In this document: positions 21,735-28,856 of the stretch, piece after piece
How the letters are laid out: every line of letters starts with the position of its first letter
How positions within the stretch are numbered: position 1 is the stretch's first letter
DNA from: Candidatus Latescibacterota bacterium
GTDB lineage: Bacteria; Latescibacterota; UBA2968; UBA8231
Reading direction: 5' to 3'
Assembly: GCA_965203175.1 (NCBI GenBank)
Contig: OZ241867.1
Location: forward strand, 2,016,001 to 2,080,000
DNA: 64,000 bases
Translations under genes and position numbers: made by a program
Notes under the pieces: generated by a model
The model's database searches: none
Seen by the model: the letters and a program-made list of their open reading frames with translations, nothing else
What the model was told of the DNA's origin: nothing

Positions 21735-21835
21735 TCACTCCCGATTCGCTATGTGCAACTCCCACAACTGCTCGGGCGACACCTCGCTCGGCGCACCCAT
21801 GAGCGGATCCTGCGCATTCTGGTTCATCGGGAAGG
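21735..21835 (-). repeat. 101-bp direct copy of the aspS 3' end (24058-24158)
   Basis: Hand alignment gives 4 mismatches in 101 nt; includes the stop codon. Confidence 0.92.
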
Positions 21836-21837
21836 TG

Positions 21838-22098
21838 TGTTGCCGACGCCCTCGCGAGCCTTCTGCACCAGCAGCCGGACGGCATCGAGCTGGTACTAAC
21901 GCGGGAAGATCATCGTACTTCCTTCCAGAGGTAGGCTGTCCGATAGCTGCGGCCTACCGGATCGTGTGGATTCCCGGAACCGCCATCACATCCCTTGTCG
22001 AAGGGCAGGAAGTAGGTTGCGTCGCCGGCTAGGCGCGTGGTCGTGCGCACGTATTCGGTATCGACGGCAAAATGGACGAGTGTGCGCCGTTTGAACTC
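21838..22098 (-). pseudogene. Degraded internal fragment of hsdR
   Basis: Matches 15283-15364 and 15462-15642 with an ~100-nt deletion and a TAT>TAG stop in FPRY. Confidence 0.88.
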
Positions 22099-24057: not shown

Positions 24058-25818
24058 TCACTCCCGAATCGCTATGTGCAACTCCCGCAACTGCTCGGGC
24101 GACACCTCGCTCGGAGCGCCCATGAGCGGATCCTGCGCATTCTGGTTCATCGGGAAGGCGATGACCTCGCGGATGTTCGGTTCGTCCGCCAGCAGCATGA
24201 CGATGCGGTCGATACCGGGCGCGATGCCGCCATGGGGTGGCGCGCCGTAGCGCAAGGCGCGGATCATGCCGCCGAACTTGCGATCCACTTCTTGCTGCGA
24301 GTGCCCGGCAATCTCGAACGCCTTGTACATGATGTCTGGTCTGTGGTTGCGGATGGCACCGCTCGACAGTTCGAGGCCGTTGCAGACGATGTCGTACTGA
24401 TACGCCTTGATCTCCAGCGGTCGTTGCGTCTCTAGCGCAGCCATGCCGTCCTGTGGCATGGAAAACGGGTTGTGCGAAAAGGCCACACAAGCGCGTTCTT
24501 CGTCCCATTCGTACATGGGAAAATCGACGACCCAGCAGAATTCATAGCAACGCTCCCGCCGCAAATCGAGCCGGTCTGCCAGATGCAGGCGCAACCGTCC
24601 CGCTATGGACGCTGCCTCGGCTGGCGGTCCGGCGATGAAGAAAATGGCTGACCCCGGAGCGGCTGCACACTGCTCGATGACGCGGCTACATACGGTCTGT
24701 TCCAGCGCGGCGGCGATTGAGCCGGTGGCCTGCGCTCCGTTGATGAGGTACGCCAATCCCTTGCCGCCCGCCTCTTTGACGAATGCTTCGAGGCTATCGA
24801 AAAACGAGCGCGGCTGCGCTTCCAGTCCGGGAACGCACAGGGCGCGGACGACCCCTTCTGCTGCAACGATGTCCCTGAACAGCCTGAACGAGGATCCCGC
24901 GAAAATCTCGGAGAGGTCTTGGATTTCGAGCGCGAAGCGCAGGTCTGGTTTGTCCGTGCCGAACCGCAGCATGGCGTCGACGTGGGAAAGACGCGGGAAC
25001 GGCGGTGCGGTCACTTCCCAATCGGTGAACTCGCGGAAGAGACCGGAAAAGAGTTCCTCGACCACTGCGAAGACATCCTCTTGCTCGACAAAAGCCATCT
25101 CGAGGTCGAGCTGGTAGAATTCGCCGGGGGAGCGGTCGGCGCGGGCGTCTTCGTCGCGGAAGCAGGGCGCGATCTGGAAGTAGCGGTCGAAGCCGGACAC
25201 CATCAGCAACTGTTTGAACTGCTGCGGTGCCTGCGGCAGCGCGTAGAAGCGGCCGGGATAGAGCCGGCTCGGCACGAGGTAATCGCGCGCGCCTTCGGGC
25301 GAGCTGCTAGTGAGAATGGGCGTCTGGAACTCGGCAAAGCCCATCTTTGTCATGCGCCGTCTGATGCTGGCGATCACCTCCGAGCGGAGCTGAATGCGGC
25401 GGTGCAGTCCGGCCCGGCGCAGGTCCAGGAAGCGATAGGACAAGCGAGTACTCTCCCCCACGTCGGGATCTTCGGCGACGGAAAAGGGAAGTGGCTCTGC
25501 CAGCGAGAGCACTTCTAGCTCGCGCACGGCGATTTCCACCTCTCCAGTCTCCATGGTGCTGTTGATAGTCTCAGGCGACCGCTTGCGCACGTCGCCTACG
25601 ACGCGGATGACGGATTCGCGGGGGACCTTTGACGCGGTTGTCGCAACGTCATTCTCTGGTGAGATCACGAGCTGGGTAATGCCGTAGTGGTCGCGCAGGT
25701 CTAGGAACAATATGCCTCCGTGGTCCCTTTTGCGATGAATCCAGCCGCTCAGGTGGATGGTTTGGCCGGCGTGACGCTTGCGGAGTTCGCCGCAGGTGTG
25801 GGTGCGATAGCGGTGCAT
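24058..25818 (-). CDS. aspS: Aspartate-tRNA ligase, probably non-discriminating (Asp/Asn)
   Basis: [14 protein letters not shown] (His typical of ND enzymes), [44 protein letters not shown]. Confidence 0.96.
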
Positions 25819-25845
25819 GGTAGCCTCCAGTTTTGGATGTACATG

Positions 25846-25882
25846 AAAAACCCGCCGTCGGCGCGAGGCTCAACGGCGGGTT
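25846..25882 (-). terminator. Attenuator terminator 2 (proximal to aspS)
   Basis: Minus strand AACCCGCCGTTG-loop-CGACGGCGGGTT followed by TTT; 12-bp stem. Confidence 0.85.
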
Positions 25883-25902
25883 GGGGTGCGGGTAGAATCC
25901 GA

Positions 25903-25992
25903 TCACGGCCAACGCCATCGAGCCCGAATGGCGGGGTTATTATCGTTATTGTTAGCAAAGGCGTAGGCCGTGTGATTGTAGCGGAATGTCAT
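25903..25992 (-). CDS. Asn-rich leader peptide 2, MTFRYNHTAYAFANNNDNNPAIRARWRWP
   Basis: AGGAG RBS (26001-26005), ATG 25992, run of NNNDNN codons, TGA 25905-25903. Confidence 0.85.
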   Translation of the reverse strand: MTFRYNHTAYAFANNNDNNPAIRARWRWP

Positions 25993-26005
25993 TGCAAAAG
26001 CTCCT

Positions 26006-26046
26006 AAAAACAGAAAACCCGCCGCGATGCGTGTTCGCGACGGGTT
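26006..26046 (-). terminator. Attenuator terminator 1
   Basis: Minus strand AACCCGTCGCGA-acacgca-TCGCGGCGGGTT followed by TTCTGTTTTT. Confidence 0.85.
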
Positions 26047-26072
26047 GTGAATTCTTGGGTTGGATTCAGTCG

Positions 26073-26138
26073 TCAGAACACGCGCAATGGGGCTAGCGGG
26101 TTATTATTCTGTGTGCGGTCGTTCTGACGAGTTATCAT
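26073..26138 (-). CDS. Asn-rich leader peptide 1, MITRQNDRTQNNNPLAPLRVF
   Basis: ATG 26138, ND and NNN codons, TGA 26075-26073. No SD; ATG lies 8 nt after a -10 box, so probably leaderless. Confidence 0.78.
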   Translation of the reverse strand: MITRQNDRTQNNNPLAPLRVF

Positions 26139-26146
26139 AGTCGTCT

Positions 26147-26174
26147 AAGATAGAGGAAGGCCGGATCCCGTCAA
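26147..26174 (-). promoter_or_regulatory. sigma70 promoter of the aspS leader
   Basis: Minus strand TTGACG-N16-TATCTT. Confidence 0.65.
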
Positions 26175-26201
26175 GCCAGACTGGGCCGCGCTTGCTGGTC
26201 T

Positions 26202-28721
26202 CTACAGCCCGAACCAGCGGTTGAGCTTGATCAAAAAGATGCTGTCGCCATCGTCGGCGAAGGCGCGGCTCAAGTCGCCGGCGGGGCGGAACCTCGGGTC
26301 GCTAACGTCGTCGAAGGCGCGGTCGCGGCTCTGCTGCCAGACGGCGAAGAGCGTGCTGCCGGGTCGGTACTCCCAGCGCAGCACTGCGTTAGAGCGCAGT
26401 GAGCGGCGGCGAAAGTCCGGGTTTTCTTCAAGGCCGGCGTAGGGTGAGAATTCGTAGGACCGTGGGCGCGCCAGTTCCTTGATGGCACCGTAGTCGCCGG
26501 TTGTCGCGAAGGGCTGCGCGAACAACTGCAAGCTCAGACTCGGCGTGAAGGCCCAGGTGACGCGCACGCCGATCTCGAAGACGCGGCTTTCGAGCTCGCC
26601 GAAGATGAAGTGGTCGTCCTCGCTGTCGCCGTCCTCGTCCTTGTTCTCTACCCACTGGGCGAAGTTGCGGTTGAAGTTGTAGCCCGGCTCGATTCCCAGC
26701 TCAAACTGGGATACGGGGCGCAGTGCGATTTCAAAGCCGACCCACGATCCCAAGTTGTCGCCTCCCCGGCTCCCGCTGATGTTCCAGCCGAGCCAGCCGC
26801 TGATGGGCTTGCGGTCGTCAGTCCACACGTCCATGCCAAACCAGGTGTGGGCGGGCGAGAGCATGAGCGGTCCGCCGCGAGTGGCCAAGTCGTCAAAGGC
26901 GGCAAAGTTGCGGCTGAGGCCCATCCAGAATCCCCAGTAGTTATGCAGGTTGTGCCAAGTGTTGAAGTTGATGCCGCGGGACAGCCGCTCGCCGGCGAAG
27001 TTCCAGTGGTTCCAGACGTTGACGTTGAACCCGGAGCGGCGGGCGAACCAGTAGGGGTCGAGCTTCTCGTGATAGATGTGGGCACCGGCTTGGATGCGGT
27101 CGTTGCGCCGCATAAAGCCGAGGTCGTTGGCCTCAAAGCCGGGCGACTGCGCGTCCACGTACGCTTGGCCGCCGAAGGCACCGCCCGTTTTCTGAAAGTA
27201 GAGCGCGCCCTCCCAGCCGGTGTCGCGTTCCTTCTCCTGCCCAGCGCGACTGACGGCGAGCCGGCTGTAGAGGCGGTAGGCGTTCTCCCACCACTTGACG
27301 TGCAGGTCGCCGGCACCGACGTAAGCCGGGTCAAAGCCGCGGCCGTTGACCGCAGTGAGTTGGGCTCCAGCGGTGGAGTTGGTGAGTAAATCCTGTTGTA
27401 CGCGACCGATAAAGTAGTTGGTGATCGGCTCGATCTCGACGTCGCGGCGCAGCGTATCGATGCGGCCTGTCTCAGCGCTGGTGATGCGCTGGTCGATGCG
27501 CGCTTCCTCCCGGCCGGTGACGGCGTTGAGCAGGCCAAAGGCCGTGCGTCCGGCGGTCTTTCCCGATACTTTGACGGCACCGAGGATGGTGGTGTTGTCG
27601 GGACGGTCCACCTCGTTGCTGTCTTCGGGCAAGTCAAAGCGCGAGGGCGGTCGGCCAATGCGCCGCGAGTGGAACAGGCGCGTGGGCCGGCGGATGCCGA
27701 CGATGAACGGCGTCGGCGATTCAAAAATCTGGATGCCCTCTAAAAAGAAGGGCCGGCGCTCGCGGAAGAAGGTCTCAAAGACGCCCAGATTGAGCACGGC
27801 TGGGTCCCCCTCGATCTGGCCGAAGTCCGGGTTGATGGTGGCGTTGAGAGAGATGTTCGACGATAGGCCGTAGCGCAGGTCGAGGCCGGCCGAGGAGAAC
27901 AGGTCGTGCTCGCTGTCGCTGTCTCCCGGCGACAGGGTGCTGCGGCCTAGCGCGAAGGGGAAGATCTCGAGGCTGCGCTGTGGCCGGATGCCTTCGATCC
28001 CTTCGAGATGACCGAAGCGCGAGACGTAGCCGCTGACGCCCCGAGGTTTGAAGCTCCACTGTGACCACTCGGCGCGGCGGGAGATCTTGCGAAAGACGTT
28101 GATCCCCCAAGTATAGCTCTCCTTTTCGCCGAAGCGCAGGACGTGATAAGGGATCTTCAACTCCAGGCTCCAGCCGTCAGCGCGCCGCGCCGTCTTCACC
28201 TCGGCCACGCTGTCCCAGCTATCGTCAAAGTCGTCGTCGTTGTAGATAATCCCGTCCCCGATCCAGCCTGAGGGACCCACGACGAAGTAAACGCCTGTCT
28301 GATGGTCGTGGTGGGGGTCGAGGTTGATCTCGAATAGGTCGCGCTCGCGCCACTCGTCGCGCCGCGCCAGCCGCGTGGTGATGCTGTCGGGATGGGTGTC
28401 GTAGCAGATGCCGGCGATGTAGAGGGCGTCGTCGTCGTAGGCCACCTGAAAGGTAGTGCGTTGCGTCGAAGGCTGGCCGTTGTCCGGGTCGTTTTGCGTA
28501 AACCCCTCGTGTACGGGTGCGCGCAGCCAGATTTCGTCGTCGATGACGCCGTCGAGACGCGGCGGCACCTCGGCCCGCACGGCGCGGGCGGTGCGCTGGG
28601 GGTGCGTCATCCAAAACTGCATCTGGGCATCGCTGGTGTCGGCCCGGGCGGGTTGCTCATCGGCTGCGGCTGCCTCGGAGATGAGAAAAGCGGCGGCTAG
28701 CACTGCCGCAAACATGTGCAT
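26202..28721 (-). CDS. DUF5916-family protein (CBM9-like domain plus outer-membrane barrel)
   Basis: Signal peptide, PRLDGVIDDEIW, TINPDFGQIEGD, FFRERRPFFLEG, LRWEYRPGSTLFAVW. Confidence 0.85.
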   Translation of the reverse strand: MHMFAAVLAAAFLISEAAAADEQPARADTSDAQMQFWMTHPQRTARAVRAEVPPRLDGVIDDEIWLRAPVHEGFTQNDPDNGQPSTQRTTFQVAYDDDALYIAGICYDTHPDSITTRLARRDEWRERDLFEINLDPHHDHQTGVYFVVGPSGWIGDGIIYNDDDFDDSWDSVAEVKTARRADGWSLELKIPYHVLRFGEKESYTWGINVFRKISRRAEWSQWSFKPRGVSGYVSRFGHLEGIEGIRPQRSLEIFPFALGRSTLSPGDSDSEHDLFSSAGLDLRYGLSSNISLNATINPDFGQIEGDPAVLNLGVFETFFRERRPFFLEGIQIFESPTPFIVGIRRPTRLFHSRRIGRPPSRFDLPEDSNEVDRPDNTTILGAVKVSGKTAGRTAFGLLNAVTGREEARIDQRITSAETGRIDTLRRDVEIEPITNYFIGRVQQDLLTNSTAGAQLTAVNGRGFDPAYVGAGDLHVKWWENAYRLYSRLAVSRAGQEKERDTGWEGALYFQKTGGAFGGQAYVDAQSPGFEANDLGFMRRNDRIQAGAHIYHEKLDPYWFARRSGFNVNVWNHWNFAGERLSRGINFNTWHNLHNYWGFWMGLSRNFAAFDDLATRGGPLMLSPAHTWFGMDVWTDDRKPISGWLGWNISGSRGGDNLGSWVGFEIALRPVSQFELGIEPGYNFNRNFAQWVENKDEDGDSEDDHFIFGELESRVFEIGVRVTWAFTPSLSLQLFAQPFATTGDYGAIKELARPRSYEFSPYAGLEENPDFRRRSLRSNAVLRWEYRPGSTLFAVWQQSRDRAFDDVSDPRFRPAGDLSRAFADDGDSIFLIKLNRWFGL

Positions 28722-28856
28722 TATCCTTCCTTCTTGGTTGAGGATAGCAAAGGGCTCCACTTAGAATTCAAGCTCCCCTGACGGTTGAACAATGTCAAAA
28801 GTGGGTGTGGGCGTACGGGGGATGGGTGACCGCTGGGCTTGCCTCGATAATCCGAT

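Follow-up and report, generated by a model that had tools for sequence, protein, structure and literature searches.

Tandem asparagine-codon attenuators predicted in the leader of an accessory aspS gene of Latescibacterota

The window analyzed here is a stretch of 64,000 nucleotides (nt) from the genome of a Candidatus Latescibacterota bacterium (contig OZ241867.1, positions 2,016,001 to 2,080,000), the minus strand of which carries aspS2, an accessory gene for aspartyl-tRNA synthetase (AspRS). As read from the sequence, the leader of this gene (26175-25819) contains, in this order, a promoter, a short upstream open reading frame (uORF1), terminator 1, a Shine-Dalgarno sequence, a second upstream open reading frame (uORF2) and terminator 2, followed by aspS2 itself. 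A preliminary description of this DNA had placed the promoter, both uORFs, both terminators, the ribosome-binding site and aspS on the minus strand at coordinates where we find every one of them, and had read the whole as two serial Asn-codon attenuators on aspS, a reading that is borne out by the conservation, the retained frames, the pair counts and the masked folds described in the following sections. We consider it probable that two serial Asn-sensing attenuators gate an accessory aspS2 that most likely feeds GatCAB via tRNA-Asn. Our confidence in the attenuator part is higher than in this combined mechanism, and our confidence that the aspS2 product charges tRNA-Asn is lower.

Layout and folding of the aspS2 leader

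Each of the two units consists of a uORF with Asn control codons and of three regions (regions 1 to 3) ahead of the closing arm of its terminator. The elements, all on the minus strand of the window, are the following.

26147-26174, minus: sigma-70-like promoter, with -35 TTGACG (26174-26169), a 16-nt spacer and -10 TATCTT (26152-26147)
26073-26138, minus: uORF1, encoding leader peptide 1 (MITRQNDRTQNNNPLAPLRVF, then stop), 21 amino acids (aa)
26108-26100, minus: uORF1 control codons AAT AAT AAC, in addition to AAC and GAC as codons 6-7
26075-26073, minus: stop TGA of uORF1, within region 2
26114-26130, minus: unit 1 region 1 (TCGTCAGAAC-g-ACCGCA), 16 pairs with region 2
26070-26086, minus: unit 1 region 2 (TGCG-c-GTGTTCTGACGA), partner of region 1 or of region 3
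26029-26042, minus: unit 1 region 3 (CGTCG-c-GAACACGC), serving as 5' arm plus loop in terminator 1 and as 3' strand in the antiterminator
26006-26046, minus: terminator 1, with a stem (26046-26016) of 12 pairs, a 7-nt loop and the tail TTTTCTGTTTTT, the T-run extending to 26006
26001-26005, minus: Shine-Dalgarno sequence AGGAG of uORF2
25903-25992, minus: uORF2, encoding leader peptide 2 (MTFRYNHTAYAFANNNDNNPAIRARWRWP, then stop), 29 aa
25953-25936, minus: uORF2 control codons 14-19 (AAC AAT AAC GAT AAT AAC)
25956-25972, minus: unit 2 region 1 (CACGGCC-t-ACGCC-t-TTG), 15 pairs with region 2
25904-25924, minus: unit 2 region 2, pairing to region 1 through CGATGGCGTTGGCCGTG (25920-25904) and to region 3 through GGCTCGATGGCG (25924-25913)
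25867-25878, minus: unit 2 region 3 (CGCCGTTGAGCC), serving as 5' arm in terminator 2 and as 3' strand in the antiterminator
25846-25882, minus: terminator 2, 14 pairs in the minimum free energy (MFE) structure, then TTTTT
24058-25828, minus: aspS2 with its GGAGG ribosome-binding site (25828-25824); coding part 25818-24058, 586 aa

A promoter scan of 5 kb returned six promoter-like sites, against 1.0 ± 0.9 in shuffled sequences, and the -35 element TTGAC(G/A) together with a TAnnnT -10 is retained in divergent leaders, with genome G007 as the exception. Since the -10 element ends 8 nt before the ATG of uORF1 and no Shine-Dalgarno sequence precedes this frame, uORF1 is probably leaderless or nearly so. 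The Shine-Dalgarno sequence of uORF2 is retained in most of the 16 leaders that have both units; G012 and G055 have AGGAA and GGAGA, respectively, at this place. Folded alone, terminators 1 and 2 have energies of -20.6 and -24.0 kcal/mol, respectively.

The 327-nt leader has an MFE of -111 kcal/mol (z = -4.42), a stability reached by none of 100 shuffles, and the corresponding structure shows the 1:2 and 3:4 helices in both units and leaves the ribosome-binding site of aspS2 unsequestered. Each unit has a 1:2, a 2:3 and a 3:4 helix, the 2:3 helix being mutually exclusive with 3:4. The preliminary description had listed this set with the same 2:3 pairings, and only its 1:2 helix of unit 1 has to be corrected, as it is present but longer, with 16 pairs. 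Masked folds mimic the positions of the ribosome. For unit 2, the MFE structure is the antiterminator (-34 to -44 kcal/mol) when the A-site is on codons 14-19, the terminator (-24.5 kcal/mol) when the ribosome is at the stop, and the 1:2 helix with the terminator (-55.7 kcal/mol) when the uORF is untranslated. For unit 1, a ribosome on codon 11 favours the antiterminator (-27.7 vs. -25.3 kcal/mol).

We propose the following sequence of events. As long as a leader ORF is untranslated, or is read through to its stop within region 2, region 2 would be either paired with region 1 or shielded by the ribosome, and with region 2 unavailable the 3:4 hairpin and its U-run would end transcription. When charged tRNA-Asn is scarce, the ribosome would stall on the Asn/Asp codons, which lie in the loop that separates region 1 from region 2, and block the 1:2 helix, upon which region 2 would pair with region 3, the terminator would be pre-empted, and RNA polymerase would continue; aspS2 would be reached only after both units have been passed. 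Its product would then most likely aspartylate tRNA-Asn to supply GatCAB. Whenever asparaginyl-tRNA synthetase (AsnRS) no longer meets the demand, more Asn-tRNA-Asn would thus be made by the tRNA-dependent route, and the pathway would be sensing its own product. Both units presumably sense how fast ribosomes read Asn codons and, less strongly, Asp codons. While the sequences show the anatomy, its conservation, the retained frames and pairings, the switching in silico, the gene content and the largely complementary distribution with asnB, we infer translation of the uORFs, termination at the hairpins, the response to Asn and the activity of the aspS2 product on tRNA-Asn.

Distribution, conservation and natural variants of the leader

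A BLAST search with the 357-nt leader detected it in 28 of the 76 genomes of one Latescibacterota family, namely in 20 of the 31 genomes of genus g1 (the window's own counted), one of three in g9, one of three in g13, both in g15 and four of ten in g22. A strict region 2-to-region 3 pattern gave a single match in each of 24 genomes among the 168 of the phylum, all from this same family; it had no match in the 92 genomes of 13 other families, and the reversed control gave none. Nine upstream regions of approximately 60% identical aspS homologs from other phyla contain no Asn uORF with a terminator. In metagenome contigs, a first pattern retrieved no stretch and a looser one 119; among the 80 of these that were screened, none has the second arm of a terminator with a T-run, thus we regard these matches as chance. 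Every leader that we read lies directly 5' of aspS2, despite at least five different upstream flanks. In the window, the upstream gene (26202-28760, minus strand) encodes an 852-aa protein with DUF5916 and CBM9-like domains that is unrelated to the leader. With upstream DNA this variable, the leader is to be assigned to aspS2 and not to the DUF5916 gene.

The uORFs show a coding signal. uORF1 is intact from ATG to TGA in 26 of the 28 leaders, with lengths of 20-30 codons, and uORF2 is open in all 16 genomes that have it. The preliminary description had pointed out that the Asn run of both peptides ends in NNP, and this ending is indeed retained in 25 of the 26 intact uORF1 and in 15 of the 16 uORF2 sequences. 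The distance from the last Asn to the stop is likewise kept, at eight codons in uORF1 (25/26) and ten codons in uORF2 (16/16). The runs follow the patterns NNN(N)P in uORF1 and NN(N/D)DNNP in uORF2, the N/D run of the latter varying solely among Asn, Asp and, in G055, Ser. An 18-24-nt insert in divergent genera results in more Asn codons (...CNNQANSGNNNP..., ...HNNPANPGDNNP..., and MTNHKNRALNNSNSTNNDNSP... in G047), the uORF1 of G047 with its extra Asn codons reading MTNHKNRALNNSNSTNNDNSPMALLRVL. Asn codons outnumber Asp codons in every leader; in genus g1, uORF1 has a conserved Asp at codon 7. The 6.58-Mb genome of the window, in which Asn codons account for 2.9% of long-ORF codons (AAT 1.1%, AAC 1.8%), contains 12 short ATG ORFs with at least three consecutive Asn codons, and uORF1 and uORF2 are the only two of them with a terminator-like hairpin after them. 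This strict run scan was informative, whereas a relaxed genome-wide scan for codon-enriched uORFs with terminators returned 277 rows and was too noisy.

Pairing is retained in the aligned leaders as follows.

Unit 1 (28 rows), helix 1:2: 16 pairs, 86.8% of 433 cells paired, no significant covariation
Unit 1, helix 2:3: 13 pairs, 98.4% of 364 cells paired, two compensatory pairs
Unit 1, helix 3:4: 12 pairs, 99.4% of cells paired, nearly invariant
Unit 2 (16 rows), helix 1:2: 15 pairs, 90% of 240 cells paired, no double changes
Unit 2, helix 2:3: 12 pairs, 99% of 192 cells paired, no double changes
Unit 2, helix 3:4: 14 pairs, 98.7% of cells paired, no double changes

The compensatory changes in the 2:3 helix of unit 1 are U-A to C-G twice, in G047 and G007; the values observed for this helix were reached by 16-19 of 500 shuffles, and slid controls were 8-58% paired. 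The loop of terminator 1 is nearly invariant, complementary to region 2 and included in the 3' strand of the antiterminator, and its conservation speaks for a switch, since a plain terminator needs no conserved loop. In unit 2 of G055, two one-sided changes retain pairing in both 2:3 and 3:4.

These observations bear on a simpler explanation, by which the hairpins are plain terminators or insulators of the DUF5916 gene, and the short ORFs and alternative pairings arose by chance. Terminator 1 lies 156 nt downstream of the stop of that gene on the same strand, and the terminators are without covariation, both of which would suit it. However, the promoter sits between the DUF5916 gene and uORF1, the leader moves with aspS2 behind at least five flanks, the frames are retained across indels in 26 of 28 uORF1 and 16 of 16 uORF2 sequences, the conserved loop is complementary to region 2 in a helix with two compensatory changes, and the combination of an Asn run with a terminator is the sole one in 6.58 Mb. 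We therefore give this explanation hardly any credence.

The same conserved features bear on control by a factor acting in trans. A cmscan search of 25000-27000 against Rfam, with E up to 10, returned only four unrelated matches below gathering scores, and neither the T-box (RF00230) nor any Rfam amino-acid leader family matched in this interval. According to the excerpted text of PMC1262725, many aminoacyl-tRNA synthetase genes in other phyla are controlled by a trans factor that binds the leader, which could here be uncharged tRNA in the manner of a T-box, AspRS as in the autoregulation of Escherichia coli thrS, or another protein. The missing Rfam match and the conservation of codons, frame and spacing, which a binding site would not require, make such control highly improbable for aspS2.

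The 28 leaders comprise 16 tandem ones and 12 that have unit 1 only, the latter being 11 single-unit leaders and that of G091, the aspS2 gene of which is truncated. Two junction types occur among them: terminator 1 runs into the AGGAGG of the aspS2 ribosome-binding site in G001, G023, G019, G008 and G068, and the tail of terminator 2 follows on from the 3' arm of terminator 1 in G007, G056, G090, G088, G083, G047 and G091. The basal members of the aspS2 tree, G047 and G090, are single-unit. The two units align with each other at a score of 57, compared with 25.4 ± 8.4 for shuffles (0/500 as high), which weakly suggests that unit 2 may have arisen by duplication of unit 1, although shared functional features may inflate this score.

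Further variants concern the gene and the promoter. In G091 (locus L143, G091:C1, ~3148814-3149800), the unit-1 leader is intact (MNNNPTKTGDNNPPDLLRVF, then stop), but the aspS2 gene behind it is missing the first 178 residues and is interrupted again farther downstream. In G022, the leader is absent and aspS2 is reduced to fragments with two TGA stops. Hence aspS2 is undergoing loss in some lineages. In G013 (locus L017, G013:C1), a hairpin insertion of ~50 nt (CTCCCCTTGTTCAACGGAGGGGAG) lies between the -35 TTGACG and the -10 region of the leader promoter.

Several points count against serial attenuation. Covariation is thin because the sequences are close, with none in unit 2 or in either terminator and no significant signal in the 1:2 helices; of the check on conservation and covariation proposed in the preliminary description, the part on Asn runs and frames came out positive in the relatives, whereas compensatory change amounts to only two pairs in the 2:3 helix of unit 1. 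Moreover, the genomes compared are related and do not count as independent of one another. In G005, uORF1 is broken and aspS2 is still present, and the leader of G007 is without a promoter. With the ribosome at Asn codons 12-13 of unit 1, the equilibrium fold is the terminator (-25.3 kcal/mol), slightly favoured, and therefore kinetic precedence of the 2:3 helix must be assumed there. Four metatranscriptome runs yielded contigs from relatives that are ~94% identical, among which X1 (25000-26036) bridges terminator 2 into aspS2 and X2 (25899-26109) bridges terminator 1; ends, starts and levels are not readable from such contigs, and DNA carry-over is possible. The runs were sampled as small shares, and the interval 26134-26241, uncovered in all four, carries no meaning. 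Transcript ends are thus out of sight in these data, and the alternative folds of unit 1 differ by ~2 kcal/mol, two facts that leave some room for stalling at Asn codons to act through Rho-dependent polarity, translation or mRNA stability instead of the intrinsic terminators. We consider this very unlikely, as both hairpins are GC-rich and directly followed by at least four T (TTTTCTGTTTTT; TTTTT), 99% of their pairing is retained, and the aspS2 ribosome-binding site is free in the MFE structure.

The accessory aspS2 gene and the asparagine route

The product of aspS2 is a bacterial-type aspartate--tRNA ligase, with a full-length match to NF001750 (808.9 bits). The housekeeping paralog aspS1, located at C1:4615142 onward, is 44% identical to it. 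A match to AspRS was obtained in all 41 genomes searched, those of full length with 42-47% identity being of the aspS1 kind; copies of aspS2 with at least 91% identity are present in 17 of the 24 genomes sampled from the same genus, and the 16 genomes of other families have none. The nearest relatives of aspS2 outside the family are ~56-63% identical and come mostly from Alphaproteobacteria, with some from Lentisphaerota, Fibrobacterota and Planctomycetota. A tree of 99 rows built with FastTree places the aspS2 clade (eight rows, support 100) beside AspRS of other phyla. The clade of aspS1 (14 rows, support 100) is separate and follows taxonomy, and the tree names no donor. As its clade groups with other phyla and apart from aspS1, aspS2 is, judged by this phylogeny, an accessory, horizontally acquired paralog.

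At the other end of the gene, the C-terminal residues 551-586 of aspS2 occur a second time, with 83% identity, at 21738-21845 of the window (minus strand), ~2.2 kb downstream of aspS2. Two ORFs lie in between, of which one, of 317 aa, has no family and the other encodes a protein of 252 aa that carries the abortive-infection domain Abi_C, and it looks as if a small defence-like cassette had been inserted at the 3' end of aspS2.

The genome of the window is a single contig with a completeness of 93%. It encodes AsnRS (asnS, 473.7 bits against a cut-off of 342.6), contrary to the prediction in the preliminary description that asnS would be absent, and glutaminyl-tRNA synthetase (GlnRS; glnS, 706 bits). 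The gatCAB genes expected in that description are represented by gatB (570 bits), the subunit that was searched, gatA and gatC being outside the search. There is no match for asnA and none for asnB above the cut-off of 267, solely partial amidotransferase-domain matches of at most 72 bits. The single tRNA-Asn has the pair U1-A72 and tRNA-Asp has G1-C72; in the excerpts of PMC4206432, the U1-A72 pair of tRNA-Asn is required by bacterial GatCAB. The excerpts of the same source also describe a route from a non-discriminating AspRS and GatCAB to asparagine in Thermus, Deinococcus and Bdellovibrio, and thereby a precedent for genomes with AsnRS, GlnRS and GatCAB and without AsnA/AsnB that use such an enzyme (PMC4206432). 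Because AsnRS, GlnRS, GatB and a U1-A72 tRNA-Asn are present and AsnA and AsnB are missing, the aspS2 product would most likely act on tRNA-Asn. The preliminary description had not taken into account that the controlled gene is a second, acquired copy in a genome that lacks asnA and asnB and has glnS and gatB; with this context, the logic of the circuit would be control of the tRNA-dependent asparagine route and not housekeeping synthetase control.

The distribution of asnB in the family, scored by TIGR01536 with E up to 1e-30, agrees with this logic. Among the 76 genomes, 25 have only the leader with aspS2, three have both, 36 have only asnB, and 12 have neither, that is, asnB is missing in 25 of 28 leader-bearing genomes as compared to 12 of 48 without the leader. 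The distributions of aspS2 and asnB are largely complementary, also within genera g1, g13 and g22.

Two other synthetase genes of the same genome have leaders of the same kind. In front of thrS (TIGR00418, 687 bits), a leader ORF in which 11 Thr codons follow one another (MISAMLTVASAPCLSGLPSGPTATTTTTTTTTTTMCAG, then stop) precedes a strong terminator (G000:C1:2324487-2324603, minus strand; locus L153:2109-2340); its -10 element lies ~7 nt before the ATG, and this ORF also looks leaderless. In front of tyrS (TIGR00234, 394.5 bits), a leader ORF with five Tyr codons (MMQNLRAERYYYYYTSLHRQG, then stop) precedes a terminator (G000:C1:5271245-5271310, plus strand; locus L154:200-390). The thrS leader DNA is found in 28 of the 30 other genomes of the genus, with the Thr run retained in 12 of 12 loci read, and the tyrS leader DNA in 27 of 30, with a Tyr run of at least three in 11 of 12 loci read. 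No such leader was found in the upstream regions of aspS1 and asnS. As thrS and tyrS are gated by codons of their own amino acids, the gating of aspS2 by Asn codons points to a role of its product in serving tRNA-Asn, and we regard this cognate-codon pattern as the best argument for that role.

The role of the aspS2 product in asparagine synthesis also has to be weighed against several observations. Three genomes have both aspS2 and asnB, and 12 have neither, four of the latter being assemblies of one to three contigs. TIGR01536 also takes in AsnB-like paralogs that do not necessarily make asparagine. GlnRS and GatB are found in 73 and 74 of the 76 family genomes, respectively, regardless of their aspS2 or asnB status, and aspS1 may therefore already be non-discriminating, in which case aspS2 may be only an inducible booster or a tRNA-Asn specialist. 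A His within RRDHGG, a motif of the anticodon-binding domain, counts as a determinant of non-discriminating AspRS. The aspS2 motif, RKRDHGG, has this His as do the Asp/Asn ligases of Mycobacterium smegmatis and Pseudomonas aeruginosa in alignments with Protein Data Bank (PDB) sequences, and the Asp-specific, discriminating enzyme of Thermus thermophilus has Leu in its place (RRRDLGG). To this extent the preliminary description, which had taken the His as a sign of a non-discriminating enzyme, agrees with the alignments; but housekeeping aspS1 also carries it (RRRDHGG), and we rejected the His as a marker that singles out aspS2 because the two paralogs have it in common.

Some of these observations would equally fit real attenuators in front of an ordinary, Asp-specific spare AspRS, where the Asn codons are a proxy for starvation or nitrogen status or where the device mainly senses Asp. 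The mixture of Asp with Asn in uORF2, the conserved Asp codon 7 in uORF1 of g1, the His already present in aspS1, the occurrence of GatB and GlnRS throughout the family without aspS2, and the three genomes combining aspS2 with asnB favour such a spare enzyme. Nevertheless, the excess of Asn over Asp codons in every leader, the tracking of function by codon choice in thrS and tyrS of the same genome, and the complementarity to asnB (25/28 vs. 12/48) speak for a role in the asparagine route, and we regard a mere spare AspRS as improbable.

The assignment of aspS2 to tRNA-Asn can be extended to a joint reading, which we offer as speculative and, taken in full, rather unlikely. It holds that aspS2 encodes an AspRS preferring or dedicated to tRNA-Asn that is in effect asparagine-biosynthetic, was acquired sideways, has been repeatedly exchanged against asnB and is regulated by its end product, Asn-tRNA-Asn, and that the leaders on thrS, tyrS and aspS2 would be the counterpart, in this lineage, of the T-box regulon of Firmicutes. 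Helicobacter GluRS2, which is dedicated to tRNA-Gln, is an example of such a specialized second enzyme.

A further observation concerns GatCAB itself. The open frames that contain gatB are 1113-1115 aa long in genomes G083, G088, G089 and G090 of genus g22 and ~480-580 aa long elsewhere, suggesting that gatB has been fused to a neighbouring gene in this genus.

Comparison with known systems

Classical attenuation is textbook knowledge for trp, his, leu, thr, ilv and pheST. Full-text literature searches found no published Asn-codon attenuator, in agreement with the preliminary description, which knew of no Asn-peptide attenuator on aspS. Known or candidate classical attenuators on synthetase genes named in the excerpts of PMC1262725 are those of pheST, of trpS2 in Streptomyces avermitilis and of leuS in Streptomyces. 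As presented there, E. coli pheST (with pheM), trpS2 and leuS resemble the aspS2 leader in having a leader peptide with control codons, a choice between antiterminator and terminator, and a synthetase as the target, and S. avermitilis trpS2 is, like aspS2, also a second copy (PMC1262725). In contrast to these three systems, as far as they are set out in the excerpts, the control codons of aspS2 are for Asn and not for the nominal Asp of the enzyme, two units stand in series, uORF1 is apparently leaderless, the leader has no Rfam match, and the target is an acquired paralog in a genome without asparagine synthetase. The feature is real, and what is new in it is its occurrence in this phylum, the arrangement in tandem alongside naturally occurring single-unit variants, the restriction to an acquired paralog and the context without asparagine synthetase.

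The two leader ORFs of Salmonella mgtCBR answer to different signals (ATP and proline), whereas both aspS2 units have Asn/Asp codons and resemble each other. The excerpts of PMC3641672 describe mgtCBR as having two short leader ORFs, each thought to control stem-loops and transcription into the coding region, as we propose for aspS2; its target is a virulence and Mg2+ transport operon and not a synthetase. Tandem attenuators with leader ORFs are consequently known as such (PMC3641672); the preliminary description had stated that it knew of no tandem classical ones on a synthetase. For Shewanella aspS, the excerpts of PMC2659441 give a '5'-UTR motif' as a predicted structure only.

On the side of the asparagine route, the closest likeness is to T. 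thermophilus and Deinococcus radiodurans, where AspRS2 and GatCAB coexist with AsnRS, GlnRS and a U1-A72 tRNA-Asn and where AsnA/AsnB are lacking; Bdellovibrio has the same constellation of AsnRS, GlnRS and GatCAB with a single non-discriminating AspRS (excerpts of PMC4206432). The acquired second AspRS of Thermus and Deinococcus supplies Asp-tRNA-Asn for asparagine synthesis and is of archaeal type according to these excerpts, in which no attenuator is named, while aspS2 is of bacterial type and its activity on tRNA-Asn is putative (PMC4206432). Control codons for an amino acid other than the enzyme's own would amount to regulatory evidence, independent of biochemistry, for a bacterial-type second AspRS in Asn-tRNA-Asn synthesis. 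Leaders of this kind also make non-discriminating AspRS function predictable, which sequence motifs by themselves fail to do. What a second attenuator in series adds, for instance the wider dynamic range supposed in the preliminary description, can be tested directly on the natural leaders with one or two units. T-box riboswitches occur on aspS and asnS of Firmicutes and bind uncharged tRNA directly, without an ORF. The aspS2 leader is like them in that expression of a synthetase would be coupled to tRNA charging through the choice between antiterminator and terminator. T-boxes on aspS/asnS are also named in the excerpts of PMC1262725. The Thr and Tyr leaders on thrS and tyrS suggest that an uncultured phylum relies on leader peptides for its synthetase genes where Firmicutes use T-boxes.

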